NCBI GenBank assembly: GCA_002633005.1
Contig: NMRA01000379.1
Span: 248,001-312,000, forward strand
Reading direction: 5' to 3'
Source of the DNA: Phoronis australis
Taxonomy: Eukaryota; Animalia; Phoronida
DNA length: 64,000 nt
Under the pieces are notes generated by a model, which worked only from the letters and a program-made list of their open reading frames with translations, did not search any database and was not told the DNA's origin. The translations under genes were made by a program, and so were the position numbers. Below, one piece after another: positions 5,379 through 57,000 of the stretch (the stretch's first letter is position 1; each line of letters opens with the position of its first letter).

Positions 5379-5909
5379 NNNNNNNNNNNNNNNNNNNNNN
5401 NNNNNNNNNNNNNNNNNNNNNNNNNNNNNNNNNNNNNNNNNNNNNNNNNNNNNNNNNNNNNNNNNNNNNNNNNNNNNNNNNNNNNNNNNNNNNNNNNNNN
5501 NNNNNNNNNNNNNNNNNNNNNNNNNNNNNNNNNNNNNNNNNNNNNNNNNNNNNNNNNNNNNNNNNNNNNNNNNNNNNNNNNNNNNNNNNNNNNNNNNNNN
5601 NNNNNNNNNNNNNNNNNNNNNNNNNNNNNNNNNNNNNNNNNNNNNNNNNNNNNNNNNNNNNNNNNNNNNNNNNNNNNNNNNNNNNNNNNNNNNNNNNNNN
5701 NNNNNNNNNNNNNNNNNNNNNNNNNNNNNNNNNNNNNNNNNNNNNNNNNNNNNNNNNNNNNNNNNNNNNNNNNNNNNNNNNNNNNNNNNNNNNNNNNNNN
5801 NNNNNNNNNNNNNNNNNNNNNNNNNNNNNNNNNNNNNNNNNNNNNNNNNNNNNNNNNNNNNNNNNNNNNNNNNNNNNNNNNNNNNNNNNNNNNNNNNNNN
5901 NNNNNNNNN
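5379..5909. other. Assembly gap (531 N)
   Basis: Run of N followed by a poly-G edge. All ORFs crossing it are artefacts. Confidence 0.99.
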
Positions 5910-7843: not shown

Positions 7844-10800
7844 TTAGATTGCTGCAGTCTTATCCACAGTTTCGTAAACATCTGATCTCTTTTGAACAGA
7901 GACAGGTATCTGTTGACGGACTTCATTCACATAGTTGACATCTGCAAAGAGAAATATATTAACTGTTAAAATAACATTACAGGACAAAAATAGTAGCTGA
8001 AATTTCCATATTTCTATTTTTCAGAGGCCTTAACACATTGTACCAAATACTCAAAGTTTTACCAAATGTCTAGTAATAGCTATGCCATACAAACCACATT
8101 ACAAGCAAATTAATGTTTCCTGAAAAGTTATTTTTTGTTGAGAAATTCAACAAAATAAAAATTTCACATGTCTGCCGTATTGTGTCCCAAACTGAAAAAA
8201 TTACCAAAATTTAAACCTTCTAAACTTATCACTAAGCATAGCAGAACAACTTCTAGACTAGTTCAAGTGAGGTCACCTATCAAGAACATGCATAAATAGT
8301 CATTTGTAATGCACACAGGGATGAGGGAGTATGGTGTGTGAACTCAACCCAGAATATAGTCAAGACCTAGGACACCTTTCATGAAACTTTTTTGGTCTTA
8401 AATTAGGTCAAAATCAGGCGAACTTAAAAAAAATTGTCACGGCTCTATTTCTTCATACTTGGAAAGAACAAAATAAAAACCATAACTTGTTCTTTCCACA
8501 TTATCGCTAATTTGATCAACCAGCCTACTCAATCAGTGATAATAGCCTGTCAGCTTATTGTCCCAAAGGTCCCATTTTGCATTATGGAATTTTGGATTAC
8601 TAAACGTGACTAAACCAAGTACAGTCCACGACAAGTATCTAAGAAATAACTTGCCATATTAAACAAGCCACAGTTCAAACCACATTGTATTCCAAAAGTA
8701 CCTGGAAAAATGACAACTAGATAGATGATTTCATCTTCAAAGTTTCTCCGTATTAAGATTTCGCCTCCATGGCCAGCCATTTTTACCATCATGACGAGAA
8801 ATGTTCACTTTATGTGTGAACTGTACTTACCTACATCACCATACACAATCTCCTCTGAACTGCCTGCCTTGGCAACAACCTCACCCCTAGAAATGAGAAA
8901 CATCATCAAAATATACTCAAGATTTTCTGCAGGCATCAGAATCATGGCCCGTATTGTGGTCGTGTACACTTTGTCAATAGAAACAATGACTTCTAGGCAA
9001 TAAAATGCTGGATGAAATAAATTAAACTAGTGTGGACTAAAAATTGGTAATCGTTAGATCTGTTTGACTTCTAAAATTGAACTCCCTGTGAAAACTAGTA
9101 GCGTTGTTCTTCTTTACCAAAGAAATACTATAAATATTAGCCATCATTTTTGATTTTTTAACCAAGGCGGGATACGTAATTGTGGTGCATGACTTGTGAG
9201 CTCAAACAAAAGATCGTGAGAAAGTTCCGCAATAAACTAGGTTGTTATCTCATATTGGAAACCACTTTTGTTAGGAGTTGAAACTAAATGGGGGTTATTT
9301 ATAATGCCCAAAAACCTTCCAAAATCCACTCAAGTATCCACTTCCAATTGAACCTGTGTATCGTATGTGGAGATCTATGAACTAACGATGTGAAAATGTA
9401 ATCAGCAGTCAGCAAGTGGAAATCTTTCATTTTAAGTTATCGTGATTTCAATCAATAGTTATCACCCCCTAAACAATTTACAAAAAACTGAAGAGCCAAC
9501 TGTATTCTCATTCGAGGTGATTAGATAAGAATTGAGTAGAGTCCGAGTCAAGTCAGCATTCGAGGGTTAGACGCAATCAATTGTGTTGACAGTGTATAGT
9601 ATTGTATGACTAGTAATGTGCATGTTAAATTACGCTCGTCTGTAATTTAGTTGTACCCCCAATTAATACGTTGCTCATGTGACATTGGCTTTTAAGTGCG
9701 TTTTTCCGCTTTAGTATTTGCATTTGCCATCCATGATCTGCATACAGGGCACGTGTGTTGTCCGTTGGCTGATTTTGCATAAGTAACAGGTTTTCCTAAT
9801 GTGAGTGAACGTTCTCAACTATTTTTGGTACTTAGTATGTGCACTGCATTTTTTCATCTTCTATTTTTTGTTCTTTGCGCCCTAAGTTTATTTGACGCAT
9901 TTTCTCTCTTTGGTTTGAGCATTTCGCGCGAGAGGTTGCACTTCACATATCTTTTAGTTATCTCTTGTGCCTGAATTCACTTCTATTTTGACCAGTGTAA
10001 CAGTTACTTTTTTATTATGCTCTTTCTGTTGCATTATATTTATATGTAAGCTTCCCCAGTATTCTTGTTTGTGTCGAAAGGTCAAAGATCATATGGCATA
10101 TTCATGTACATTTTAGACATATTAGACTGTTCTTGTAATTACTTACATATTTTGTTTATGCATGGTCGGTAAATGGGATTCTATTACTTCATTTCGTGTA
10201 CATTTCTTGGTTACTTATGAGGTATCTTTTGTCTCTTTTCAGCTTAGTATGCTGATGTTTTTGCGAGAAAGCAATTAAAGCTGAACTCTTTGTAAAGTGA
10301 CTTGCATCACTCGCTATCATTCAGGCGTCTACATTGTGCCACAACATGACCTACAACCAACATATTGCTTCTAATCCAACTAAGCAACACTGAGAGTGCT
10401 TTTATACTAGGAAGTGGTCTAGATGAAAAGTCGGGTCAGAAGGTGTGTTCACACAGTGCAATCCAAAAGTATTCAAATGACTTGGAATTCATCATCAGAG
10501 TTGTCTCCCCTGATGACTGAGAATGAAGGGGAATTAACAGGACAGGTAGAAATGATAGAAATGGTATATCCTTTCATTATTTTGGTCTCTACTGAAGCAG
10601 ATTTAACGAATTGTTATTGTAGCTCGGTCTGTCCCTCTTACCATGGATTGGCCAGAGTGGTACCTCCCCATACAACATAGGATGCAGTTTCATCTCGTGC
10701 TGGTGACACAGCAGCAACATAGCACTGATTGTCCAGAGCACGCGATCTTATCAGCAGCTCCCAGTGGGCAGGGCCAGTTGTCATGTTAAAGGCTCCAGGG

Positions 10801-13800
10801 AATACCAGGAATTGGCAACCTATAGTGATTACAGTAATTTTTTTGCTTATTTCGCACACAATATGGCCAACAAGTGAACTTCATTTTGTTAAACTTCTCT
10901 AGAAAAATAAAGATTAAAAATTTTTAGTCTAGTATTAGCATGGCTTGTGCTGAGTAAATGTCATCAAATAACTTTGGTAAATTTTCAATTATTTGGAAAA
11001 ATGACAATTTTGGCAATTATTTTCATGTCAAATAAGCAGAGAAGTTAACTTCAACTTTCATAGCATTGCTCAAACATACTTCAGGAACAATTAACAGACA
11101 TTATCTTACATAGGTGATGATATGGCCATGAAATTATTAATTATCACTGTGAAATACGTCAGAATTACTTTTCCATATTTTCTCTAGAGAAGATAACCAT
11201 TATCATCTCTAGAGAAAAAACCCTGTCAAAGCCATAAGGATTATCATGGTATTTGGTGGGATAAATCCATAAGAGTTACTGTAGTTCTTTTAACTCATCT
11301 CTGCATGGCATCACTCACAATTTTGTACTAGTGTTAGTGTCACCAATAATTGAAAAACACCTAACAAATGACAACTGAACTACATATATAACACAAATCA
11401 TAAACATATCCCGTCAAATACCATCTAAAGTTTTTACTCAATAAACTTGATAATTTAAGTGCACAAATACACGCATCCTAAACGATACAGCAACCCAATA
11501 TAATAACCCACAGTTATCATCATGTATTTTGTATAGCACATATGAATTTTCAACAACAGCAATGCAGAGTGTTGAAATGTGCCCACAAATTCACTGCAAA
11601 CGGTGTGCTTCCAAGGTGTATATTTTTATTTTAAAAATGGCCACTGGATGGTGCAAAATACTTTGAATCCATCAAAAAATGGGTAAATATCACTGTTTTT
11701 AACAGAAAGCTATTTACTAAATTTTATGAAAATCCGTCAAGGAACTTGAGAGAAACAGCAAAACCGAAAAAAATGAAGTTGCCACTAAGAAGCAAAGCAT
11801 TCACCGGATCTGTCTCAAAGTTATCGTCTTCTATTGTTAACTTCATATGGATACACTTGCTATTTAATAAAGATCCTGCAGAGTGGTTTGATTGACGGAG
11901 GGACGTACGCCAAAAAACAGACTCAAAAATAACAAAAATGGCCGCTAAGTGGCACAAAAAATAGAATCCATCCAAGAACAGGAAGATAGTGTCACCTCAT
12001 GAATAGATGCCTATGTGCCAAATTTTACGGAAATCTGTTGAGGACCTTTGAAGATACAGAGCTAAATATAAAAAAATAAAATTGCCACTAAGGGGCACAC
12101 CGGTAGTCCCATCTGTCTGAAGGTCGTTGTCATCCGTTGTCAACTTCATATAAATACATTCGCTACATTTAATAAAGATCCCATATAACATTAAGGAGAT
12201 AACCTATGGGCGCAAAAACAAACAAAACTGCCACTAGGACGCATCACAGTAATTGAAGTCATCGGAAAATCGTCGTCAACCGTCCTCTTCACAGCAAGAA
12301 CATACATGCCAATTTTCAGTCATCCTTAAAGTGGTTTGATTGATAAATGGGTGGCTGCCAAAAATTGGACTCGAAAAAATAAAAATGACCACTAGATGGC
12401 GCAGACTACATCCGAAAACAGGATGATAGTGTCATCTCATTGATAGATGCCTATGTGCCAAATTTCATGAAAATTGGTTGAGGACCTTTGAAGATACAGA
12501 GGCGAACGTAAAAAATTAAAATTGCCACTAGGGGGCGCAGCAGTATTCGGGTCAGTCCCAAACTTGTCGCCCTCTATCGTCAACCCCATAGGAACACACC
12601 TGCAAAATTTCAATGACAGCCTGCAAGGGTTTAGGAGATACAGCCACGGACGCCTGGACGCTCAAACAGAGATGACGGCGGCAACATACACCCACATATA
12701 AATATGTGGGCGCATAAAATCACAGAAAGCATTTTGGCATTAGATTACAACCTTCAAACAAAGCAACTATAAAGTCGCTTTTCACCATTATGAAATTGGT
12801 CTCGGTCAAAATACGTGGAAACAGTTGACAGTTCATAATTATTTGAGATCAGACTCTACAAGACTTAGTTGACTTGTCATGGTGTGTCATTTTATTCGTT
12901 GAGCATGACCTCAAAAGTAACATATTTTCAGTATTTTACACGACCAAAATCACTTGTTATCAGCATAAGGAGCAATGTAAGAACAATTTTAGAGCGATTA
13001 GAGGTGTGAATCAAAATTATTTTCTTTGACTGACACAATGCATTATTTCATGCCACAAATTACATATAGGTAAATAAAACAACAATAATAGGTCAATTGA
13101 AATTTTCGGATATAATAACATCCTTTGTCAACAGAGACAGAAATAAAGTAAAACTTTTCATTTCTGTCTCTGTTGACAAAGGAAGTTATTATTGTTTTAT
13201 AATAATATCTGAATTCTACATTTTGTCGAACAATAGTATCATTGAGAGGATCTGGATCACCTTATTTAGTTTCAGATTTATTTTCTACATCACAAATTCC
13301 ACCAATGTTCCAAAAATACAGTGAAGATGACACCTTCCACAATCATACAAAAACAGAATGTAACCAACCATACCTCTTTGTCTCATTACTCTTGAAAGCT
13401 CAGAGAACCTCATGTCATAGCAAACACCAATTCCTACTTTGCAATAAGCTGAAATAAGATTTAGTAAAATATTCAGTAGGCGACAAGGATTTTTTTTAAT
13501 TTTTGAGGTTTCCATACAGTTAGAATAAATGTTTGATATCTTTTGAACTTAATCGACAGTCAGGTCACTTTGGCTATGATTCGGTTGAACATTTCTTAAT
13601 TAAAAAACAAAACATTTGAAATGTAAATATAGCAAAGCTGCTCTCAATCAATACAAATAGCTGACTGAGTCATTAAATAAGATTTCATAACATAAAAAGT
13701 GAACTCTAAAGAAGTGACGCGCAGAATATCTTACGTGTGTCAAAGGTGATTACTTCATTGCCAGGACTGAGAGTATCTGATTCTTTAAAGACCATCCGTC

Positions 13801-16800
13801 CGGGAACGTTAATGTCAAACATGTGCATCTAAATGAACAAGACCAGTTCTTATCAAGTCAAGTTTTATAATTCATTTTAGTCGAATTTCAGTAATGATGA
13901 CCAAATTCACTACCCTTCAAATATAAAGACAAATTGTATACACCCAGCTTCAATTCACAAGACATTCTCAATTTATCACAAAAACAATTTATTAAACAAT
14001 TTAGACAAAAGATGAATTCTTGTTACAACAATTATTAAACAATTTAGACTAAAGATGAATTCTTGTTACAACAATTATTAAACAATTTAGACTAAAGATG
14101 AATTCTTGTTATAACAATGCCATATAAACCTTTCTGAACTTTGTAATTAATTCTCCCTGGTCATTAAACACGGCACATGTATTGTATAGCTTTCCATCTT
14201 CTTCCTCAGGAAATGTACCTGCAATTTCCAATAAGCAAATCAATTCAAGTGGCATTACTATGTAACTACTATAAAATATCTATTGTGGTAAAGTTTCTTC
14301 CAATAATAACACTATATGGCAGAACATCTGGTAAAAAATCTTATCAAAATTTTCAACAAATATAAACAAGAAAACAATTTCATTTCATTATTTGAAAACT
14401 TAACCTAGTGCAGTAGTCATCAACAAATACAAAATTTTGAAAACTTTTAGGAATACAATGAGTGCTGGAAAAATGAAAAATGACATTTTCAGACATTACT
14501 TTTGTTTGAATTTCAGGAAACTTTACTGTACTCCTTTCAACACATATTACATGTCATATGCTAAATATTTTTGATTTTGTTGAAAAAAGAATAATTATGT
14601 TCAGGATTCAAATCAAAAATGCTCCCAGCAAAAGTACGCCAAAATGTTACCAGTTTGGGACATAACAATGCGTACAAGTAAAATGCATTGTGTATAAAAG
14701 ACAAGAAACACCAAATAATTGCTTTTATCATTTTAAACTACAATACCATAGCTACCATATGATGTTTTAAAAAACTGTGGGCATTCTCAACATTAGAAGC
14801 TAAATGAAAGGTTAATTTTGGCAGCAATTAGATGTCTACATGCCAAATTTTATGAAAATTTGTTGAGTACCTTTGAAGACACAGAGGTAATGTAAAAAAA
14901 TAAAATTGCTACCAGGGGGCACACCGGTAGTCAGATCTGTCTGAACGTCATCGTTGCTCATTGCTCATTGTCAACATCATACATTGTCAAATACACTTTT
15001 TAAATTTAGTAAAGATCCTGCAAATGGTTTAGGAGATAGAGCCATGGGCGGAAAAAAAACTGCCACTAGGAGACACCACAGTGGTCGAAGTCATCCGAAA
15101 ATCATTGTTAGCCATCCTCGTGATAGCAAGAACATACATGCCAATTTTCACAATCATCCTTAGAGCGGTTTGGTTGATAGAGGGGTGGACGCCAAAAAAA
15201 CAAAAAAGTAAAAATGGCCACTAAGTGGCGCAAACTACTCCAAATCCACCCAAAAAGGGGAGGATAGCGTCATCTAACAAATACATGCCTATATGTCAAT
15301 TTTTATGAAAACACGTTAAGAACTTTTGAAGATAAAGCGGTAAACGTAAAAAAATAAAATTGCCACTAGGGGGCACACTGGTAGTCGGATCCATCAGAAA
15401 TTTTGCTCATGGCGTCCTATTCACGAAAGGAACATATACGCAAAATTTCATGACAATATGTCAAAGGGTTTTGGATATAGAGCAATGGATGCCGGACAGA
15501 CGCTGGACGGACTGACAGACTGGACGACGGCATAATAACCACATATAAACATGTGGGCGCATAAAAAGAGCAAGATACGTCTATTGCCACAAGTCGTGGG
15601 TAGAGAGGGTTGTGGGTCATGGAGGTTGTGGGTCGAGAGGGTTGTAGGTCAAGGGGGTTGTGGGGTTTGTGGGTCGTAGGGTTTTAGAACAACCCAATGC
15701 CATGCAAAACCTAGTTCCTCACAAGTTTCATAGAGTGGTAAAAGGAAAAAATTCACCGTCTTAACGCACGACCAAAAACCAGTAAGACAAGTATTGTAAT
15801 TCACTTATTTAGCACACAGTTTGGCCGACAAGAGAAATTCTGTTTTGTTAAATTTCTCCATAAAAGTAGATTAAGAAAATTTTAGTTTATTACTGACATG
15901 GTTTGCATGATGTAGATGTCATGAAACAACATTTCTTAAGGTTGTCTTTGTTCCCAGAAAGGTTATCAGCCTTTAAAAAAGTAGAAAATGATAATTTCAG
16001 CAATTATTAAATTTGTACAAAATAAGTGGGGAATTTCCGTAACAAAGCATGCCGATGAAGAACAAAAGGATCACCTACCACCAATAATGAAAACTTTATT
16101 TTCTTTGGCTGCAGAAGACAAAGCCTCAAAAGATGGGCCATGAAATGTTTCGGCATAATTCACAAAATGCTCAGGCCCGAAGGGACACATGAACCATTCC
16201 TACAAAAATTGGTCCAGAAAAATTAACGCCATGATTGTGTGAACAAGCAGACTACTTTTACAAAGCACAAAGTTGTTATTTTGATGCCACGGAATATTCC
16301 AACCAAACTTGGACGGAGATGTTTCACGCAAGATTTGAAAAACTTAAATATGACCAAATCGTCATAGTTTTCTTTTTGAGTACAGAGTTTATTTTCCCCA
16401 GGCTGCCAACAAAATGTTACTGCAAATTGAGTAATTTTAACATACAATGAATAATTCCTCGTCTATTCAGCACAAGATATGGTAGATGAATGAAATTTCA
16501 TTTTGTTCATTTCCAAACCTACAATCAATTCAGCATGGTTTATATGTCTGCATAATTGACAAAAATGTTTGAACATGTGGAGCAAGGTGGCCAGGGTTTG
16601 AAAATAAGGACACATGGCAATCTTGGTGATTATATTTGTGCAAAATAGCTGAAGAACTATCATACAGTAGTTTACTGACCCCAACAAGCAACAAGTAGAT
16701 TTGTTATCAATCGACACCATTTTGTTGGTTCCTTTCCCGTGACATCAAACAAAACTAATGGAAACCTACCACCAATCACAAAAACTTTATTGTCCTTGGC

Positions 16801-19800
16801 AGCCGACGACAAGGCATCAAACGACTGCCCATTAAATTTCTCTGCATACTTTGGGAAATACGAGTTACCATAGGGGCTGTTGAAACATTCCTGGAAATAG
16901 ATTATTTGTTAGCAAAACGTTGCTTGATTTGATTGCAATAAAAACAACAAATACAGACAAGAGTCAATTAACAAAGCAAAGCATTGCTCTGACTATAACA
17001 AAGCAAAGCAAAGCATTGCTGTGACTATTACAAAGCAAAGCATTGCTCAGACTATAACAATGCAAAGCATTGCTCTGACTATAACAAAGCAAGTGATTGC
17101 TCTGACTATGACAAAGCAAAGCATTGCTCAGACTGTAACAAAGCAAAGCATTGATCTGACTATAACAAACCAAAGCATTGCTCTGACTGTAACAAAGCAA
17201 GTGGTTGGTCTATAACATACATGAATGATTTCAATGTACACGTAAACATTACGTAACTGAACATTTCAAGCAAACACTACTCAGTAGATACTTGATAAAA
17301 ACTCACAAAAATCAGAATAAAGCTGTACATCAAATATAAGTGTAGAAAGACAAGAAGCATTGCAGGTGTAGCCACCAATTGTCAAGAACATTTAAATATT
17401 TTGATATATTTTACTAATTCCAGTGTCAATCGTCCTAAACTACTAGGGCCTCACAGAACAGCAAACTGGGCTTTACTAACTCTTTGGGAATAGTTTTGAT
17501 CATTTCAGTTATAATTGCTTCTACTGATGTCCTACAACTGTTTTTAGTTGCTCTTGATTAGGTGTGGCCCTTTTGTGCAGGATTTCTGTTTCTTTGATAC
17601 TAAGTTACCATGGAAACTTTGGACACTGCACATACTGTATACTGTATACACATAAATACAATATGACATCAGCAATCCTACTCAGTTTTCTTATACAATT
17701 GTCTTTTTACACTTCATGGTTAACATCTGTGGTGGCAGCAATATTTGGTTACTGTTGATATTATTATCTACTAATAAGTATTGCAGATGAACATGTACCT
17801 TGAAACTTTCCATAAATTTATGTCCACATCTTACAGTGGATATAAACACAAACAATGGACAGAGACAAAACACAATATTTCACCAATTTCTGACAAACGT
17901 TGTTACCATAATTGCCCTTTTTCGTTTTTCAAGGGCTCCTAACATTGCTGTAAATGCCAACAATTTATCAAAATGATGTCTAATGTTAGCTGTTGTATAG
18001 GAAAAGCATTAAGTTGTTCTAGACACTTAACTTTGTATGAAAAAATAAAAAAATTTAATTTCCACCACACTGTATACTAATTGGTTAGATTTAGCTGTAG
18101 TTATCCAGTAAGTCCATTTCTAAAGTCCAGCTATAATTCTTTATACTTCGGTCCCAGACTGGCAAACACCGAACAAAATCTGACAATTCCCAGACATACA
18201 CTCTTAATCTTCACAAAAGCACCCAGAACATTCCATGCCCAGCGGTCAGAACATTCCACACCCAGTGACCAAATTCACGCACCCACAGCATTCCATACCC
18301 AGTGACCAAACTCCAGTCTCAGCTAAAAATTCTTTAGTTTGGGACACAATAAAGCAGACAGGTGAAATTCATTTATAAAATTTCTCAACAAAAATAACTT
18401 TTAAGAAATTTTACTTTGGTTTTAGCATGGTTTGGATCGTGCAGCTAGTACCAAAACAACATTAGGTAAAATTTTGAACATTTGAAAAATATGGCGAGCT
18501 TCCGAAAAATAGAAATATGGCAATCATAGCAATTGTTTTTTCCAAACTGAAGAATTTTTACCGAAATCTGGTCTCCGGAATTGAAATTTGGTCCTCCGGT
18601 ATGGATTTAGGTAACCAGGTATAGTTAGGGAAAAGTGTATGGGATTTGTACTGAGGTCACAAGCTTGATGTTCGTTGGAACAGAATAGGGGATTAGATTT
18701 ATGCCTTGGAATTTAAAGGTGTGACCATGGAATTGTCTCCCCTTCTGGGCATCTATCTACAAGAATACACACTATTAACAAAAGTGGATAAGGAAATCAA
18801 TACGGTACCGGCAATGTGATGATTTTTGCCCCTTGGTTGGCAGCCTCTTTGATTTTTCTTGCAGCTCGTGCTAAGTTCTCCGGCTTGCTGGCACCCACAG
18901 CTAGCTGAATAAGTGCAACTTTGGCCCCTTCAGAAAAAACACATGGACACATTTTGGTAAAGTATGATATAACATGCCCGCATTTAAACAACCAGTTTTC
19001 TCCACAAAATAATGGGCATCAAACTGGTTCTCAAATTGTAAGCATATATTCTCAGACTGTTGCCCACATTTTCAACAGATGATACCACATATTTACAACT
19101 CCTTTTGTCAAAAACTAAAATGTCCCACAGGGGGTGCTACAGCAGCTAAACCAGTCCAAAAATCGACTGGTACCAGCGCATACCAGCCACCTACCTCTAT
19201 ACCAAATGTCATCAAGGTCTGTCAAGCGGTTTCAAAGTAACTGGTTGTGCTGGTGCATCCACGCCGATTACCTCTACACCAAATTTGATCATGATCTTCC
19301 AAGCGGACAAAAAATGAAATGATGGACCCATAATTTTTAATTAGGTTGAAATATAAAACACAATTTTTGAGATAATCAACCTGTCTTGTCAAAAACTAAA
19401 ATGGCCAACAGGGGGTGCTATGGTAGCCAAATCTGTCTGAAAATCGATTGGTGCTGGTGCATGCTAGCCGTCTATCTCTATGCCAAATGTCATCATGAGC
19501 CGTTTATAATAAGTGGTTTCAAGATAATTGACGGACAAGCAAGGATTCGAGCAGTCAAAAATCTAACGGGGTGCCACAGTAGTTCAATACAGCATAAAAA
19601 ATTGACTGGTGCCAGCACAATCTTGCGATATACTTCTCTTTCGAATTTCATCGTGATCAGTGAAGCAGTTTTTGAGATAATCAACATACAAGGAATGGCT
19701 AGTCGAAAACTAAAGCGCCCAACATGGGGTTCCAAGGTTGCCAAATCCACTCCAAAATTGACTGGTGCAGACGCATCCTTGCCAAGTACCTCTATACGAA

Positions 19801-21826
19801 ATTTCATCACGATCGGCCAAGCAGTTCTTGAGATAATTGATAGACAAGAAATGATAATGACAGACAGATTGACCACAAAGTTTTTGTTGGGTGCGGAAAA
19901 ATTCCATGTGAGATCACAACTCTTATCAGTTACCAGAAACTTGCTTTTCAAATACACCTGTGAGCAATACTTTTGGCAGCCATCAGGTGTCTCTGTTCAC
20001 CACGAGTCTCTTGTAATTTCAATAAGATTTTTTCAATTTCATGGATCTATGAATTTCAAACGAACGCTTTTAAACTGCTATGTCAAGTGAATATTGGAAC
20101 TTTTCTATCTGACTCCTCATACTTTTTATTTAGAAATCATCAATTTTCTTATACGAGTTAACACCAGTTTAGTGTCGCAGAAATTTTATTCTAATATGAC
20201 TGCAGTACAACATGTGCTTGTAATCAAGTTGCCTATGACTTGATTAATGGCATAGTGTACATATTGCACTCTGTACACTAGCAACATGGACTTGTTTTTT
20301 GTTTTGGGATATATTTGGGTATTTGCCAAGTGAATTTCTGGTGAGTTTTGATTTCTTTTGTGTTTGGCGGAAAATACCAACCTGTCAGCATTTACAGGTC
20401 AAAAAATACCACCTGGTTTTAATGCTTTACTTCTTACTACCTACAATTTGATTTTTTTCTAAAGACCACCACCGTGACCCATGAATTTATATTTCAACTG
20501 CCGTTACCCCCTCCCATAGTTTACAAAAACAGCCCTCTGTTGTGGGCTTTTTTACTCAAACAAAAAAAAACGGTTGGACCAAGACTTTTACATCAAAATT
20601 TACGAAAACAGCTAAGTAGATTACCAAACAAATATTAGAGATATTAGTTGAATGCTGAGTGCACTATGTGTTTGGTAATCTCGAGTCAAATTGATGTTTT
20701 AAAGTTTATCACATGATCTTAACTAGCTTTAATATTCTGTAGAATGAGTCATCAGAGCAGCAGTTACAAACAAGAAATATGGTGTGTGGTTTATATTTTG
20801 GCAACAGGGGTCACTGCTGTTCCATTTTAAAATGCACATTGAAAAGAATGAAACGGGAGCAAATCATGAAATTACAGGTCTGAAACACCAGTTTGGAGTT
20901 ACACCCAGCTATGACTTCTATACAATGTAATGAATTACAACTGGAGGTAATATCATTGGTGGTATAGCCAGCAGTGGATGAAAATGTGGATGATTTGCTA
21001 ATGCTTGCACACTGCATAAAGGCCTGTTAGGCGCCAATGTTGAAAAATCTGATGACGCTAAGACATGTGGGGTTGCCAACAGGACAGCCGAGCGTCCAAA
21101 TGGATCAGCCAAGTGGCAAGGGACTTTGATCGGTTTATATGGCTGTAGAGTAGGTCACGGCTGGAAGTCACATGTCTCAACATAAGATGGTGAAGGAGAA
21201 ATGACAACCAGCCATTTTTAACACTGCGACAGTCTGCGTTATGATATCATATTTCCTGGATGCCAGTTATTGATTTTGGGAACTGAACTAAAGACTGTTT
21301 GAAAAAAAAATTTATAACAGGAGTGTTTGTTGTTAGAAGGAATAAATACATCAACGTTCTCCTAAGGCTAAGGCTTTGCCTTTTTAAGCCAGGCTAATGT
21401 GTCGCTCTAGTCTATGCACAAAAGGTACCTATTTAACCTATGCTATACCAACGGGACTTTGATGTTTCAATTACTGTGCTCGGCGTAATTCATCGAAAAA
21501 CTGATGGCGTAACAAGTGCCTTTAAAAACTTAATTGTCTAGAAGAGTGGTCGTGGCGGTGGTCACACTCTTATCTCTACTAAGCTATGTTAGTATTAAGT
21601 AAATAGTAAAGATGATTATGTGATAGCCGGGCACAGTCAACACTTCATTGCAAGTCAAACGACCGCCGTTCTCTAGCTGGCCCCAGTCGACAAGGTACCC
21701 AAACTACACGGTTAACGGACCGCTAAACACGGCTGATTCACGGCAGTTGGTTTTCAAACTCGGCATACTACGACATGAACGCTGACTATGAGTTATGGCT
21801 GCGTAACGATAATCACCTGAATACAT
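7844..21826 (-). CDS. NIT2: Omega-amidase NIT2 (nitrilase family), complete, 279 aa. Exons: 21817-21826, 18809-18927, [16770-16890 or 16079-16199], 14130-14218, 13735-13828, 13374-13448, 10642-10819, 8831-8886, 7844-7941
   Basis: All introns are GT-AG and in phase; 840 nt in total. [15 protein letters not shown]...ITLP|ECFNSPYG...|[18 protein letters not shown]...KFRK|[14 protein letters not shown]|[15 protein letters not shown]|[32 protein letters not shown]...NPW|[13 protein letters not shown]|[23 protein letters not shown]. The Glu44-Lys113-Cys154 triad is present. The 10-nt first exon is the least certain part. Confidence 0.95.
11552..12719 (+). mobile_element. HINE/pearl-like Helentron-associated element with internal ~145-bp tandem core repeats
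   Basis: 5' end aacaacagcaatgcagagtgttgaaatgtgcccac; about 7 core monomers; GGAC-type microsatellite remnant; 3' palindrome cccacatataaatatgtggg followed by cgcataaaa; subterminal inverted repeat atgtgcccaca / tgtgggcgcat. Confidence 0.75.
13112..13192. repeat. Inverted repeat / hairpin (24-bp perfect arms, extendable to ~33 bp)
   Basis: 13121-13144 tcctttgtcaacagagacagaaat is the exact reverse complement of 13160-13183. The flanks ataataac / gttattat extend the stem. Confidence 0.9.
13989..14117. repeat. Tandem repeat 43 bp x3 in a NIT2 intron
   Basis: ttattaaacaatttagac(a/t)aaagatgaattcttgttacaacaa repeated three times. Confidence 0.9.
14826..15567 (+). mobile_element. HINE/pearl-like element, 5'-truncated copy
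   Basis: Same core monomers, then ggacagacgctggacggactgacagac, then ccacatataaacatgtgggcgcataaaaa at the 3' end. Confidence 0.75.
16079..16199 (-). CDS. NIT2: NIT2 alternative exon 3A (divergent homologous copy), 121 nt
   Basis: Acceptor ttttgtAG, donor GTAGGT, open frame [40 protein letters not shown](G). Same length and phases (0/1) as exon 3B. Confidence 0.85.
16770..16890 (-). CDS. NIT2: NIT2 exon 3B (canonical copy), 121 nt
   Basis: Acceptor tttccAG, donor [46 protein letters not shown](G), with the canonical NIT2 PECFNSPY motif. Confidence 0.92.
16970..17205. repeat. Minisatellite ~27 bp x ~8-9
   Basis: acaaagcaaagcattgctctgactata units. These explain the spurious repetitive ORFs 16964-17200 and 17021-17215. 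Confidence 0.9.
18970..19902 (+). mobile_element. Second HINE-like family with internal tandem repeats
   Basis: Repeated units (aaaactaaaatggcc..cagggggtgcta...actggtgc...aaatttcatc..gatc...ttttgagataat), a gacagacaga microsatellite near the 3' end, and a terminal gggtgcggaaaaa. Confidence 0.55.
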
Positions 21827-22400
21827 GTCGTCCTTGCCCATCACACGCTAACAGGAAGTGTGACCCATTTATAGAAATAGGTCAAGATACGAATCAAACA
21901 TTTAAAAAATCTAACTTTTTATCTAAAACTAGCGGAAAGATCTGGAGCATAGTGAAAATTTCTTTTATATTCTTAAAATAATTTCATGCAAGTAAAATCT
22001 TGGGTATTTCATCTGTGTATTTTTATCGGATGTAATATCCTCGTGCCGGTTGGCGCCTTTTTAAAAACCAGCATGGATCATCAAAACATCGTTGATGTTA
22101 GAAGTTGTTAACGTCGTGTTGTCTGAGGATCTGGTTTGGAAATGCACACCATCAAGTGACTTGAAACTGAAGATCTTGGAATTTGAATGATTTTACCAAG
22201 TCAAAAAGTTTGATATTCGAACTGCAGTTTGCTGTTTGGTTAGTTAGATTTTGACTCGATTTCAATCCATTTAAAAGTAGTTTGACGTGCGAAAGTGAAA
22301 CCCCTTACTACATACAACTGGCTTTATAAACTCGGCAAGTACTGTCCCGTCCAGTGGGGGCTTAGACATTATTTTCCAACGTTTTTGTCCAGGTGCAATC
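21827..22400. promoter_or_regulatory. Putative NIT2 promoter, possibly bidirectional with CHEK1
   Basis: Immediately upstream of the NIT2 ATG, with relatively more CpG around 21.6-22.1 kb. ETS-like ACAGGAAGTG at ~21851 and E2F-like TTGGCGCC at ~22049. The CHEK1 ATG exon has a splice acceptor, so its TSS must lie further upstream. Confidence 0.35.
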
Positions 22401-22733: not shown

Positions 22734-24745
22734 TTTGGTCCTGGGAGGGGGGGAGGCAAAGAGGACCCAAAATCCATTTAATTAAACTTTCAAGTGCAAC
22801 ATCCGTTTCAAGTTTATTTCATTCACCACTCGTATTAAAATGATGAAACTTAAGGCGGGAAAATGCCTGCTGTTATTGATTAAGACACCTTCTAACTAAT
22901 GGCCCATTAACGATTTATTTAAACGTTTAATGCAACAAAAATTCTTTTTCCAAAAGATATTGTAGTAACTCTGGGTACCATGTCTATTAAAACCCATTTT
23001 TTCATGGGTTTTGCAGATAAGATAGGGTGTTTGGACCCTAAGGGATAATAAAACTCCTAAAAATGAACTTGTACAAAAGGAATTATAACTATTTTATGGG
23101 TTTATGGATAAGACCCCGTGTGACAAATAACCCTGTTATAGGAGGGGAACTTCTTATAGAAGGATCTGAACAGAAAAGAGGCTCAGGCTTCAAGAAACAA
23201 CTTGAGAGGGAGTCAATCAAATGAGAGCTACCTGTCTTCTACTGTCCACTTCTAGATGGAAGGGGAGTGTATTTCAGGGTGATGGGAGAGTGCACTTGGT
23301 ACGTTGTTAAAGTTGGAGAAATATGCACAGAATCAGTTCCATCTAATTGTAATCACTCAGAAGCCAATACCAAAATTATCCTTCATATGATTGATGCACA
23401 CAAGTCCACACCTGGCGACATGGTTATAAGACCTTCTGACACAGACATTCCAGTTCTGCTCCTACACCAATCCATGTCCATTGAATTACATCCATGGTGT
23501 GGATGGAAGTTGGAACTAGAGGACAAGATGATCTGCGTTACTTGAATGTCACTAAGATTGCTACTTGGATAGGCCAAAGTATGTTGTGCTACACTCCTCT
23601 ACACACTTTGACTGGATGTGACTATACTTGTGCATTTGTAAGTGAAGGAAAGAACAGACCACATCCAATTGTGGCAAAACGTGATATGTTTCAGAGATTT
23701 TTGCTTCAGTGAGACTATGTCCCAACAGAAGAAGTCATCAAAATTTTGCAGGATTTTGATAGTATGCTCTACAGAGCGCTTAAACTTGTCCCACTCAACG
23801 AGCACCGGTTAACATGATTGACAAAACCTACAAATGAAAGTCGACGCTATGCACCCATTCGAGAAGCTCAAAAGCATCAAGGGCAGCAATATTTCACCGT
23901 TTGAAGCTGAACTAGCACTTCACGTAGATAAAAGTGCATTTTTGCTAGACTATGGGGTAGTGCTCTTTTCCAAATCTTGGACAAAACACCCGCCAATGGA
24001 CGAGAAAATGTTGGCAGTGAATTTTGCATGATTTGATTCAGTAGATAACTGATGTCCCCTGCGGTCATTCCAAAGGTTAAAGTCAAAACAGAGCCACATG
24101 ACAATGGTGGCTGTGGTGAGAGAGATGAGATGATATGGACAATGATGTAGATGAAAACTGATCTTTCAAGAATAATGGAGCCGCGAAGAGAGTGATGACG
24201 ATCACGACTTTGATGTTTGCAATTAAATTACACCACAGTTAATAATTGTTATTGCCTTTTGAATTAAGGTTTTATCGTATGAAACAATAGATTGTGTCAT
24301 GCATCACAATGCCATGTACTTTCATTTCTTGCCCCTAGATATGCTTCAAGCAGCTTAGCTTTAATTTGAAGTTACCCCAGATGTATCTTAACTTATGTTT
24401 TTGTTTCATTTTTGTTGTATTTGAGAGTAAATTCAATTTGGTCATATGTTCAGATGTATTTGAAATTAATATGTTTTATCCATAGTAGTAATCAAAGTTG
24501 TCATATTTCCTCTTTTATACAAGTTCATTTTTGGGGGTCTTCTTATCCCTTTGGGTCAAAACACCCCCGTCTTAACCACAAACCCCTGGAAAAATCCAGG
24601 TGTGGATATGGTGTCCAGAGTTACTAAAGTATCTTTTGGATAAAGATTTTTTTTTGCAATTAAAAGCTTAGAACAAATTCTTAATTGGCCGTTAATTAAC
24701 AATTGTCCTAATCAATTTCATGAGAATCTTTCATGTCGTAAGTTA
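22734..24745 (+). repeat. Copy 1 of a ~2-kb near-identical direct duplication (copy 2 at 25264-27234)
   Basis: Colinear throughout, with scattered substitutions and small indels. Copy 2 starts right after the single N at 25263. Confidence 0.95.
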
Positions 24746-28673: not shown

Positions 28674-31600
28674 ATGGTGACCTCTTTTGTTGAAGGATGG
28701 GACTTCGTCCAAACTTTGGGAGAGGGGGCATTTGGGGAGTTAGTATTCCATCTTGGCATTAGCCTAGATTGTGTGATATTCACTTGTTCCTTTCACATCT
28801 GATTAATAGATCTAAGGAATACTGTAATGTTTTGCCGAGTTGCTTTTAATTGCCCTAGACGCATTCACTGTGTTAAGAACTGCAAATGAGCCGTAATGAT
28901 GTTTTAAAGTTTCTGTTTGCTCATTGCATATCCTGGATGTCATGTTTAAATCTGATTTTGTCAAAAATTATGTAGCAGCTTTAAACTTTGCTCCAAGTCG
29001 TGTTGTTTTTTCCTTTTTAAGAATTCCCACCATGCATTTTCATAGTTTTTTAGGTTTCATTTAGCTAATATGAAATGAATAACATAAAATCTGACTAAAT
29101 TTGCATTGTTTATGCCGAATAGCCAGGATGGATTTTTTAATTTTGAATACAAACTATTTATTTCCAAGTTTTCCGCCAAATGATGTAATGGGTGGAAGAC
29201 GTTTCGTCACTTGACAATCAGTTGCAGTGATAGAACGCAGCAGGTCAGAAGACGAGGATGATTTTGAGGTAGAACTGGACAATTATTATGCAGGCAGAGA
29301 AGAGAAAGGATACAGGCATCACTCAAGTACTTGAAGAATCAGACAATGAATTTGATTTCCTACTTAGTGAACTCTCCTCGGTTTTGAGGCCACATAAACT
29401 CGACCCACTTGCATGAGAAATGCTGCTGCCCTAGAATGGAAGCTGTTTGTTAGTTATTTATAAATTTGCAAATACACGTACAAGATGGCAAGTACGTCAA
29501 CATAACGCCGTTTTTTGAGTTTGGTCAAAACACGATTCCTTGAAGTGTGCCGAACAAAGTGTGGCGCCCGACTGAATCACATGTTCCATACTGACATCCC
29601 ACACTCTTAAGCACAAACCGACGCCATTTTTGTACAACTTTCACGCTTTTAGGAAATTTGAGCACAGAGACGTTCTCAATCAACCTCCTGTTACCACAGC
29701 CTCCACAAACGCACATTTTCATGTCTGAAAAAGGCGAATCTCCGCGGACTTTCCTCAACTCCTCCGTAGCGCACTGGTAAAAACAAGGATGGAGACGGGT
29801 CTTCCATCCATTGCAACCTTGATAACAGAAAAATATTTTTGTAAAATTTTTTGGCTGTTTCTTACCAACGGTATGTACTAAAGACTATTAAATCTCTTAA
29901 GATGTAATAATAATATTCTTTTTGAGACACAGGGTCATGGTGGGAACTTTTTAAATACTTAAAGTTTTCCAATTGTAGGGTCAAGTTAGCTGTCAACTCA
30001 ACTACGCAAGAGGCTGTGGCTGTAAAGATCATCAACTGTGAAGAGAAAAAAGTGTCCGAGACTGTTCGAAAGGAGGTGGGCTATCGGGTTACTGGTGGGT
30101 TGTTTGGGGTTACTGGTGGGTTGTTTGGGGTTACTGGTGGGTTGTTTGGGGTTACTGGTGGGTTGTTTGGGGTTACTGGTGGGTTGTTTGCGGATACTGG
30201 TGGGTTGTCACTGATTACTGGTGGGTTGTCAGGGGTTACTGGTGGGTTGTCGGGGGTTACTTATGAGTTGTCAGTGTTATGGTTAGAAGGGGAAACATGA
30301 TCGTCTTAGTGAAGCAGAAAGTCTAATTATAGAATTGATGTGGGAAAGAGAAAAAGTAAGTTGTTTTAGGGTGATGAATTTTGAAAAATATGCTAGAGTT
30401 AAATTATTTTGATGAATTCCTAATGTTAACAAACATAATAAGTCTAACCTGTCATGTTAACAAAATTGGTACAATCCTTATCTCAGCATCCATTCTTGTA
30501 TCCCCTTTCTAAAGCAGCTGTACATTGTAATATTAAATCAATTGCGTGAGCTGTAAAGTTATTCAAGATTGCAACATGGATGCATGAACCTTTATTTACA
30601 AAAAAAAAAAATAAAGTGTATTGGATATCCTTTAATAGAATATATTATAAATTTTCATTTGGATGTTGATGAAACTGTCAGAAGAAAATTTGTAAAAAAT
30701 AGTAATGTAAAATATTCAGAAAATTGTAAAATAGTGTGCCACTGATGTTTTTCATTTTGAATGTTTTCTCTTGACGTTTTAGGTTTGTGTTCATCGAATC
30801 GTTGATCACGAGAATGTCATCAAGTTTTATGGCAAAAGGAGAGAAGGAAATTTTGAATATCTGTTTTTGGAATATGCTAGTGGTGGAGAATTGTTTGACA
30901 GGATAGGTGAGTAGTTGCAGTGTTTGAGGTTCAGGAAGAAAATTTTTAGCACAAACTCAAAACCCTTCTCACCTTCCACGAGACACTACATGCTGTGGAA
31001 CTAAGTTTTATGGACGCCAAAATTACCTTTTCAACGCAAAAATGTTGATAATGAATTGGAATTATTTTACACGTTTCAGTCGTAAGAGTTGAGAGGATCA
31101 CCTTGTCATTTTGTATTGTTATGACAGGAATGACTGAAAGTGGATACTAAAAACTGTTTTGGTAATAGTGCCCGAGTAGTTGAATTTCATGTTCCATGGT
31201 AAGGGTGCGTGTGACCCTTGACCTTGCATGAGCCTTCATTGGCTGTGCCACAGATCAAGTTTAAGCATACGACAATGAGACAATGTTCATACAAAATGTA
31301 TGTCTTTTTGGTGCGCACATTCAACAGTAACTGGTCATACTTTGATGTACACATAATGCATTAGTTTGTTTTTTGCTACATGGTGCTGACTCTCACATTT
31401 CATTTGAAAGACGCAAATATTTTAGTCCTGTTGGGAGATTTGGCAAATCATTTTCTCAGTAAAATTTTAATCTCTCTGTACGGTCAGTTATAGAAAAGGT
31501 GTGCTTTTGTTGGATCAGTTTTTAAAGCACGTGACTTCATCTAACTGTAAAGTGTACGTCATGTGCTTAATGATCTTTGTTACTTTTCTTTTCAGAGCCT

Positions 31601-54000: not shown

Positions 54001-57000
54001 TTCATTGGGTATCATGAGAGAACACCACTCTGATGAGTGTGGCGTCTGCCCAGACGTAATGACGGAGAATGCCATGTCATTTTAGTTTAGGTGTGCATCC
54101 TGCTCCATGACACATTTTGCATATATATCATCATAAGAGGAACATGATAATGGTTACAAGTTTGTAAGAAATTGCAAATTGACTTGACAATAATTCATGA
54201 AAGGACTGTGCTCACACCTAGAGGTGCTTAACACTTAAAGGAAAATTCAACTTCACAGATTCACAGTTCATTTGCATACTACGTATTGATTCACTCTAAA
54301 TTTTATGGAAATATATGCATTAATATCACGTGAATGAGGAGAAATATACTGCAGTGCAAAGTACGTGGCTTATGATATTTCCATTTTGTGAACCGTGACA
54401 CACTCTAAGGTAATAAGGTTATGAAACGCCCAGACAGAGATGACGGCAATGTGCACCCTCAAATAAATATTTGGGCGCATAAAAAACAATTGTTTTTTAA
54501 CCTGAGGCGGGATATCCAGTCAATGAACAAGGCCCTTAGAGAGAAAGAGAGAGTGAAAACGTCCGACTCACCAGACTTTTATGCTTTTAGTAAGTGATTT
54601 AGCCATTTAATAAAAATCACATCATAATTTTTTCAAATATTCTCTTAACTAATAAACAAAGAACATAGTCCCAATGAATAACAACAACAACAACAACAAG
54701 ACAACAGAAATGCAGACACACCCACCCACCTGAACATGTCTAGACTCTGGTGCCACTCTCTCAATATGCTTATTGATGGCGTCTCGCTTCAGTCGAACAT
54801 CATAGCTACACTTTGGCCGGAGGCCACGTATCCTGTAGGCGCCATCTTGTTCCGTCTTGCTCTCCTCTTGATACTGTCCACAGTCACCCAGACCAACAGC
54901 TTCCACCAACAAGCCAGGCTCTGGCTCACCATTCAATGAGGTAACATCACCATAGCAACTACACAAGAGTCCAAGACAGTGATAATTAGCTCAAGCTTCA
55001 AATCAAGTTAACTGCAGTGAACATTCCCGCTCCTTCAGTCGATAATGCAATCCTGTCTAACTAGGAATGCTACTTCAATGTCCCAAAGGCATAAAACCAA
55101 GGACTCATCAAAAGATTAATATATGTGCCGTCGCACACTTCAAACTGACATAAATCAAATTAGCGGCAGTGAACTTTCGTCCTGAAACNCATGAATGGAA
55201 CATATGTGCCAAATTTCATGAACGTATGTCGAAGGGTTTTGGAGATAGAGCAGCGGACGCCAGACGCCGGACGGACGGACGGACGGACAGAGATGACGGC
55301 ATAATGCGTCCACATATAAATATGTGGGCGCATAAAAATGAGGGGCTACACGACAAAAGACGAACCAAAACCACGTATTTCAGAAATGGCACCACATGGG
55401 ACTTTAACACATTTTACGTACAATGCCCATAAACTGGCACAACACATGGAATTTATCAGCAGGCTCCCCAGCAGAAGGACTTGAATTACTGATACCTGAA
55501 AGCAACTCGTAGGGCCTTAATGGTCACATCGATGGTGGCACCCTCCTTAACATTGATCATCTGTGAGGCAGGCTCGAAGTTGTACTCTTTCATCATGGGC
55601 CGAAGGAAATATTCCCCTGGAACCTGCGGACCGGCAGTTAACTCACAATAAGTCATGTACATGATTTTACACTAGTGTTGTAAGCTTGTGTACACAGAAG
55701 AAGAATCTTAAATTTTGTCAACACATACTTAAATTGAGGCATATTTCTGCCATTCACAAAACAATAAGACATGTGAAGGACACCAAGTCAGCCACTGTTG
55801 ACAGTGTGTATACATGCAAAGAGGTTCAACTCAAACAGAAATCGCCCAGACGGCTAGAGAACAGCTGACGAATGATCCGCTCTGATGGAGGGCTAGCTAC
55901 TCTATGCCGTCTACCCGATGCCACCTCATTGCCTCCCCCAATAGCAGTGATAAGTTCCTTGACTTGATTTGTGCACAAAAATAACTAACTTTTAGAGACC
56001 AAGGTCCAAAAATCCCAAATTTATGCCAGGTACTGGTGACCACATAGATTTTTCATTTGCCTCATGAATTACTGAAAGCAAAGTGTTCTAATCATAATAT
56101 CCTCCATCCATCCTTCCAACTACACAGCAGACACATGTTTCAAAGAACATCTAGCTAATGCACTTCACCTCAGCACTGTATGGTTTAAAATGACGTTATC
56201 AGCGACAATGTTATGTACAAGAGATGAGCCTCAAGATGGACTGACGCGGAGCTAAAAGTCAATGTGTCAAGTAGCTCAGTATTTTTAGTGTATTTAGCTG
56301 GTAGGGTCACACATGTTGACTTGAATTAATTCCATCATATAGCTGGAAGAATCTGTGATTTTTAATAAATAAAAGTAAAAACAGACTTTGCTGTAATTGT
56401 GATCAAAGCTAATAACTTCAAGATATCTATGCTACCCAACAGTAATTTCAAGAAATGTTTTTTGGCCCTAAAATCGATACCGTCCCTTTGAACACAAGTT
56501 GGTAAAAAATCAAAAGCCAACTTCCAACAAGTACTAACACCAGTTTTCAACATAAACTGTACAACATTGAAGCACAAAACCATAACTTCATGTCCAATTC
56601 CTTTCAACTAGAACACCCAAATTCTCAACTGGTTGGACTCAACACACTTACAATCATTAAAACTTGACATGCAACACCTTTTACTATTCATAACGAATAG
56701 CTTCACATAAAGTTCTGACTAAAATTTGACAAAAATGCCATTTTCTACAGATTTTTTTGGACAAAATCACTCAATAAGTCTGGCGAGAAGATCGTCCAAA
56801 TTTGTCAGTCTGACAGAAGTCTCGTTAATTTTGAAAACCACTTATTACAGTAGCTACAGGGTGGTGCAAAGTGATTGTTTCATATATCTGACACCATTAG
56901 AATAGAACAACATGGCCACTCACCAATCCAACAAATGACATTATGCCATCATCTCCGCTCAGTTTATTACTTCTGTACTGGTTACTTCCTGTCAGTGACA

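Follow-up and report, generated by a model that had tools for sequence, protein, structure and literature searches.

Making two forms of a metabolic enzyme from one gene, by splicing in one or the other of two tandemly duplicated exons, is a type of system already known, with KHK-A/C and PKM1/2 as examples; the KHK and PKM exon duplications are ancient, of chordate or vertebrate age, and their tissue control is known. Here, we describe a real and expressed, but leaky, pair of mutually exclusive exons (3B and 3A) in a NIT2-like gene of the phoronid Phoronis australis. The gene lies in a 64-kb stretch of contig NMRA01000379.1 (GenBank assembly GCA_002633005.1, positions 248,001 to 312,000), which is called the window below and to which all positions refer. 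This case is unusual in that the exchange affects the loop of the catalytic glutamate together with a cysteine reported as a redox switch.

In coq-2, exons 6a and 6e are mutually exclusive in nematodes, other helminths, annelids, and molluscs, according to the available text of PMC7434440. Like the coq-2 exons, 3B and 3A are homologous internal exons of equal length, and this length is not divisible by three (134 nt in coq-2, 121 nt in the NIT2-like gene); one of them is ancestral-like and the other derived, the exchange remodels or is predicted to remodel the substrate path of an enzyme, and both forms are abundant. However, coq-2 encodes a prenyltransferase whose switch is conserved across phyla, proven by knockout, and changes the substrate (PMC7434440), whereas in the NIT2-like gene it is an exon with a catalytic residue that is exchanged, and the effect on the channel is predicted. 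KHK and PKM are both included in a human catalog of tandem duplicated exon substitutions, with exons of 135 and 167 nt by its table coordinates (PMC8373072, available part). These exons handle frame and phase differently from the 121-nt pair, and NIT2 has 0 occurrences in the supplement of that catalog. In homologous mutually exclusive exons generally, variable residues were described near ligand or specificity sites and seldom at catalytic sites (PMC7954323, available text), and the available parts of the Nit1/Nit2 papers PMC9913352 and PMC10452834 mention no NIT2 splice isoforms. The initial annotation of this DNA knew of no such switch in NIT2; our literature searches, which covered mostly open-access papers and this human catalog, likewise found no report of one.

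Results

Exon structure and RNA evidence

The NIT2-like gene comprises ten exons, counting both alternatives, on the minus strand from position 21841 down to 7844 (Table 1). The initial annotation had proposed two 121-nt exons spaced by 570 nt, with AG acceptors, GTAGGT donors, and phase 0/1 on both, of which exactly one must be included to yield protein. Position, length, spacing, splice sites, and translations were all reproduced, as was the likeness of the two exons (25/40 residues; 84/121 nt identical). Exon 2 terminates on the Pro that precedes the catalytic Glu. Inclusion of either 3A alone or 3B alone resulted in an 855-nt frame encoding 284 amino acids, and the two isoforms differ at 15/284 residues. 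Full-length protein was obtained by these routes only: with both exons included, translation ended after 97 amino acids, on the 10th codon of the 3A reading (codon 98 of the frame), and omission of both led to a stop inside exon 4 (71 amino acids).

Splicing was followed in three raw-read RNA runs from one study (X2, X3, and X4, chosen by species label), of which about 18 to 19% of the reads were sampled per run and aligned at a threshold of 98% likeness; most alignments were at least 99% identical (156/173, 109/129, and 365/397 reads, respectively). In addition, a contig set from another study (X1) was used, whose RNA status is presumed. All four one-of-two joints named in the initial annotation were present in each raw-read run. 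Exon 2 was joined to 3A by 19, 6, and 20 reads in X2, X3, and X4 (45 in total) and to 3B by 5, 3, and 19 reads (27 in total), while exon 4 was joined to 3A by 15, 8, and 81 reads (104 in total) and to 3B by 9, 4, and 21 reads (34 in total). Both upstream joints were also carried by X1 contigs. In every joint read, the first mate mapped to the plus strand, the orientation that most stranded libraries give for minus-strand RNA, and no variants inside 3A or 3B were listed in the four runs among reads at 98% likeness. Since both exons are spliced to common exons 2 and 4, a mis-join of tandem paralogs, which the initial annotation had considered, is excluded.

The two exons thus proved to be alternatives with common flanking exons, but their mutual exclusion is not strict: 9/43 joints leaving 3B go to 3A (4, 0, and 5 reads in X2, X3, and X4, i.e., in two of the three runs), and exclusion is therefore leaky at the splicing level. 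The joint that skips both exons was not listed in any run, which corresponds to fewer than 3 reads. Pooled isoform shares were 0.62 for 3A only (95% confidence interval, 0.50 to 0.74), 0.25 for 3B only (0.18 to 0.33), and ∼0.13 for both exons, although short reads cannot separate nuclear intermediates or targets of nonsense-mediated decay from stable RNA. Because reads were found for all these routes and because of these joint shares, we conclude that both exons are used, the derived 3A more often. The isoform ratio differed between X2 and X4 on the exon 2 side (p 0.034) but in the reverse direction on the exon 4 side. In X4, 81 reads (45 starts) spliced 3A to exon 4, compared with 20 + 5 spliced reads entering 3A. 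This imbalance is partly explained by unspliced upstream intron, and another entry route or a 5′-end coverage bias is possible.

Read depth in the intron between 3B and 3A was 2 to 3, 0.2 to 2, and 6 to 9 in X2, X3, and X4, compared to ∼0 to 1 in the nonrepeat part of the intron between 3A and exon 4. An X1 contig (depth 26; 16592-16796) runs from the end of 3B into the downstream intron and may represent retention or splicing intermediates. The 570-nt spacing exceeds the length for steric interference, and all splice sites are of the GT-AG type, with identical donors on 3A and 3B. No docking-site RNA pairing between introns rose above shuffled controls; the candidate inverted repeats I11, I16, and I21 were discarded (29/100, 47/100, and 3/40 shuffles, respectively), and windowed duplex energies stayed within the shuffle range. 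At the protein level, exclusivity could arise from competing splice choices combined with nonsense-mediated decay of the frameshifted double-inclusion RNA. Joining of the 3B donor to exon 4 would remove 3A. If the 3A donor is joined first, as the intron depths suggest is often the case, exon 2 would have to skip 3B, and failure to do so would cause a 121-nt shift and a stop with six exon junctions downstream. An early stop with exon junctions downstream is a standard target of nonsense-mediated decay. A 27-nt minisatellite located shortly upstream of the 3B acceptor (Table 1) could affect recognition of this exon; it paired with the following intron no better than expected by chance.

The exchanged loop

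The protein family was represented by the best 120 of 7757 matches to the relative P0003 (referred to here as the 120 NIT2 proteins) and, at the DNA level, by a metagenome scan with patterns permitting the 3A motif, from which 80 of 219 confirmed loci were kept (from 53/64 parts). Both isoforms keep Glu49, Lys118, Glu134, and Cys159, each of which occurs in 120/120 NIT2 proteins. The Cys, Asn, and Tyr of the motif ECFNSPYG are equally invariant (120/120), and all three are retained in 3B. Whereas 3B conforms to ECFN(S/C)PY, 3A departs from it by the substitutions C50W, N52M, S53C, and Y55F. Its Trp, Met, and Phe were found in none of the 120 NIT2 proteins and in none of the 80 loci at those positions; the Cys for Ser at Glu+4, on the other hand, is present in 6/120 ordinary NIT2 proteins. 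The initial annotation had contrasted this segment, with 5/14 identical residues, to the remainder of the exon, with 20/26. These counts stood (Fisher p 0.017), but the segment was chosen post hoc, and p rose to 0.13 when any 14-codon window was allowed. Counting conserved positions only, 4/8 were altered in the loop motif of 3A versus 0/9 in the rest of the exon, i.e., in the helix/strand core (p 0.029, also a post hoc split).

The best PDB match of 3B was mouse Nit2, residues 43 to 82 (E 2e-11), and mouse Nit2 was also the sole PDB match of 3A (E 1.5e-4). Because the exon aligns to this segment, position 50 corresponds to human Cys44. According to an AlphaFold model of P0003 (predicted local distance difference test [pLDDT] score 88; template modeling [TM] score 0.93 to mouse Nit2), which as the model of a relative served for secondary structure only, exon codons 2 to 8 form a loop, 9 to 15 a short helix, 22 to 34 a long helix, and 37 to 40 a strand. 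The literature and this model thus agree with the proposal of the initial annotation that the variable residues are located in the substrate-channel loop after the catalytic Glu. Human NIT2 Cys44 lies within the substrate tunnel, 11 Å from Cys153, and is reversibly oxidized by H2O2 as the main redox switch of the enzyme; the C44S variant showed a pronounced activity loss, with most of the activity gone (PMC12864753, 2025). The available text of that study leaves the role of Cys44 in catalysis open for want of a substrate-bound structure. In a bacterial nitrilase, the Tyr at Glu+6 lines the pocket and holds the intermediate (PMC7616060, available text).

Mammalian NIT2/omega-amidase (mouse 2W1V; nitrilase branch 10), an enzyme defined by its hydrolysis of alpha-ketoglutaramate and alpha-ketosuccinamate, is the nearest structural relative of both exons, and the Glu-Lys-Glu-Cys set is common to it and the NIT2-like gene; the latter differs by having two versions of the exon, of which 3A breaks the motif. 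NIT1/yeast Nit2 (deaminated-glutathione amidase) shares fold and branch, and its loop after the Glu departs from ECFNSPY as well. The Nit1 and Nit2 branches differ in this loop, where Ala occupies Glu+1 in yeast Nit2; the loop therefore varies with substrate class, and the fold as a whole does not require Cys at +1. A switch to a Nit1 sequence was rejected, as 3A is unlike the Nit1 loop, has mouse Nit2 as its sole PDB match, and is embedded in an otherwise Nit2-like protein.

Identity of the gene and search for 3A-like relatives

The NIT2-like gene is 54 to 63% identical to the 120 NIT2 proteins, among which it nests beside amphioxus and hemichordate sequences (FastTree support 0.93). In this tree, which contains NIT2 hits only and no Nit1 outgroup, its branch measured 0.50, compared to at most 0.25 for any other tip. 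With 3B in place, the protein deviates at 18/116 conserved columns versus at most 5 for any database protein, a comparison that is biased because the 120 database proteins themselves define the columns. Fourteen of the deviating columns are located outside the alternative exon, in the shared exons (7844-21841, minus strand), and include His227→Gly and Ser228→Thr (WGHS to WGGT), Leu121→Met, Lys129→Arg, Ile130→Met, and Tyr171→Met. Even the 3B form may hence be no ordinary omega-amidase. The best name at the level of sequence is NIT2-like, since orthology to animal NIT2 is unsettled given the long branch, and the gene may be a fast-evolving paralog with an already shifted specificity.

No 3A-like sequence was detected in the metagenome scan, where all 80 kept loci were canonical. 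Possible second exon copies in 4/80 loci turned out to be weak second matches (E 0.014 to 0.027) rather than copies of the exon. A word-indexed protein search with 3A returned a single candidate and none at E ≤ 10, which is weak evidence for a 40-residue query. A full HMMER scan with 3A yielded five matches, four with ECFN(S/C)PY and one with EMFNCPY; one protein matched in two stretches (P0125) represents an internal repeat of one sequence. Another 23 members of the clusters, three additional Babylonia isoforms among them, were all canonical and none was 3A-like, and the ESM Atlas gave only generic CN_hydrolase clusters under 0.9.

Age of the duplication and selection

Comparison of 3B with 3A revealed proportions of synonymous (pS) and nonsynonymous (pN) differences of 0.68 and 0.21, respectively (Fisher p 8e-6). 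As noted in the initial annotation, many differences are synonymous: this applies to 12 codons, 10 of which lie within codons 15 to 40. The purifying selection on both copies that it had deduced from them stood in part, as the ratio of nonsynonymous to synonymous rates (dN/dS) was 0.13 (0.08 in codons 15 to 40), but a late release of 3A from constraint also fits. In the intron flanks of 3A and 3B, nothing was alike beyond the donor hexamer. Judged from sequence divergence, the exon duplication is old.

In simulations that kept 3B fully constrained and left 3A neutral ever since the duplication, no more than 0.4% of the 4000 runs made for each of 8 divergence levels reproduced the data, which rejects neutral decay of 3A since its origin (p ≤ 0.004). 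A tree built from the exon alone (89 distinct segments) placed 3A and 3B as sisters (support 0.87), the duplication therefore being later than the split from the sampled NIT2 genes, and the 3A branch was four times longer than that of 3B (0.48 versus 0.12). A single 121-nt exon with AG/GT ends was observed in 8/80 other loci of the metagenome scan, and the duplicated unit is therefore an ancestral exon.

Other features of the window

The joint of exon 1 was deduced from loose read ends at 18929 that match 21841-21817 in all three raw-read runs. Elsewhere in the window, we noted a probable CHK1 exon, a NOMO exon, several repeats, and an assembly gap (Table 1). The intronic interspersed repeats draw many RNA reads from elsewhere in the genome.

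Table 1. Coordinates of the NIT2-like gene and of other features in the 64-kb window
Feature	Position	Strand	Evidence or remark
Exon 1, coding part (ATG at 21841)	21817-21841	-	5′ untranslated region reaches further upstream; GT donor after it
Exon 2, 119 nt, common upstream exon	18809-18927	-	Read joints to both 3A and 3B
Minisatellite, 27 nt, 8.4 copies	16969-17200		Ends ∼80 nt before 3B acceptor
Exon 3B, alternative, 121 nt, motif ECFNSPYG, catalytic Glu49 and Cys50 (Cys44 equivalent)	16770-16890	-	Read joints; PDB match
Intron between 3B and 3A, 570 nt	16200-16769	-	Partly retained; 3B-to-3A splicing at times
Exon 3A, alternative, 121 nt, derived motif EWFMCPFG, Glu49 kept	16079-16199	-	Read joints; family residue frequencies; PDB match
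Exon 4, 89 nt, common downstream exon, ends on catalytic Lys118	14130-14218	-	Read joints
Exon 5, 94 nt, with second catalytic Glu134	13735-13828	-	Read joints
Exon 6, 75 nt, with nucleophile Cys159	13374-13448	-	Read joints
Exon 7, 178 nt	10642-10819	-	Read joints; frame
Exon 8, 56 nt	8831-8886	-	Read joints; frame
Last exon, coding part to TAA	7844-7941	-	Joint 7941/8831 in 4/4 runs; 3′ untranslated region goes on below 7844
Probable CHK1 kinase exon	29980-30081	+	24/24 PDB matches are Chk1, weak (E 0.08-0.1)
Tandem repeat, 21 nt	30086-30261		After probable CHK1 exon
Exon of NOMO (BOS complex subunit) gene	54727-54960	-	E 6e-21 to NOMO2
Intronic interspersed repeats	11400-13290, 14710-15660, 18976-19450, 19920-20400		
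Another repeat	Near 23400 and 25950		Two related copies
Assembly gap	5379-5909		531 N; not inside NIT2-like gene
Single N	25263, 48834, 51604, 55189		Not inside NIT2-like gene

Discussion

We favor the reading, to which we assign a probability of roughly 55%, that 3A specifies an active amidase with a remodeled, more hydrophobic channel and without the Cys44 switch. In this reading, the NIT2-like gene duplicated its third exon long ago and now splices in either copy. The 3B form would keep the ancestral omega-amidase loop and the oxidizable Cys. In 3A, Trp50, Met52, Cys53, and Phe55 would make the pocket bulkier and more hydrophobic, so that a different amide may be accepted, and the enzyme would be devoid of a Cys44-type peroxide switch. 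More tentatively, splicing might toggle the redox switch and the substrate gate at once, with 3B as a peroxide-sensitive omega-amidase and the majority form, 3A, as a peroxide-resistant enzyme for a new, more hydrophobic amide.

Several observations weigh against an active 3A amidase of altered specificity. Given the activity loss of human C44S, the Trp at position 50 may cripple the 3A enzyme. Moreover, 3A gains a new Cys53 three residues past position 50, and its redox insensitivity is therefore not assured. The clustering of the 3A changes was not significant after window correction (p 0.13), a simulated late loss of constraint on 3A matched the counts in 0.25 to 38% of runs, depending on the parameters, and isoform ratios showed no consistent shift between runs. 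Finally, the search for 3A-like sequences was negative in 120 + 23 proteins, 5 HMMER matches, and 80 loci, although the protein sets cluster isoforms together.

The main competing reading is that of a poorly active 3A, which must be taken seriously given that human C44S loses activity, although we judge it rather unlikely. The 3A protein would then be folded but weak or dead and would lower amidase activity, perhaps through poisoned dimers (mammalian Nit2 was reported as a dimer in the available text of PMC9913352), or it would be in late decay after loss of its role. Such a fate would be in line with the alteration of three residues that are invariant in 120/120 NIT2 proteins, with the four times longer branch of 3A, and with the above late-decay simulations. 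On the other hand, 3A retains Glu49 and 9/9 conserved core positions, its changes hit the best-conserved portion of the exon, a pattern not favored by random decay (p 0.029), it is the commoner form, and no variant was listed in it in 4 runs.

We regard it as doubtful that both isoforms hydrolyze the same omega-amides and differ in nothing but redox sensitivity, stability, or rate, with 3A being peroxide resistant. The exchanged residue is indeed the reported H2O2 switch, the isoforms have all four catalytic residues and the remainder of the pocket in common, and two of the changes are mild or precedented (Tyr to Phe, and Cys at Glu+4 as in 6/120 ordinary NIT2 proteins). However, Asn52→Met and Cys50→Trp drastically alter channel positions that are otherwise invariant, and the new Cys53 lies nearby. 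An assembly or annotation artifact, be it a mis-join of tandem paralogs or haplotypes or a dead pseudo-exon, is highly improbable despite the assembly gap in the window. The reads connect both 3A and 3B to exons 2 and 4, include the 3B-to-3A joint, and extend over the intron between them; the 64 kb contain no second copy of any of the gene's exons, and a synonymous divergence of 68% greatly exceeds that between alleles.

The swapped exon starts on the catalytic Glu and exchanges the very residue that was named the substrate-channel redox switch of human NIT2. The isoform pair thereby constitutes a ready-made test of the determinants of specificity and peroxide sensitivity in branch-10 amidases. 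A dead 3A would be a lineage-specific curiosity. If 3A prefers another amide, this would point to a metabolite or repair reaction so far unassigned in this animal lineage. Should splicing indeed toggle channel and redox cysteine together, the gene would provide a splice switch on the catalytic-residue exon of an enzyme with the nitrilase fold and would serve as a natural experiment on the role of the NIT2 channel cysteine.

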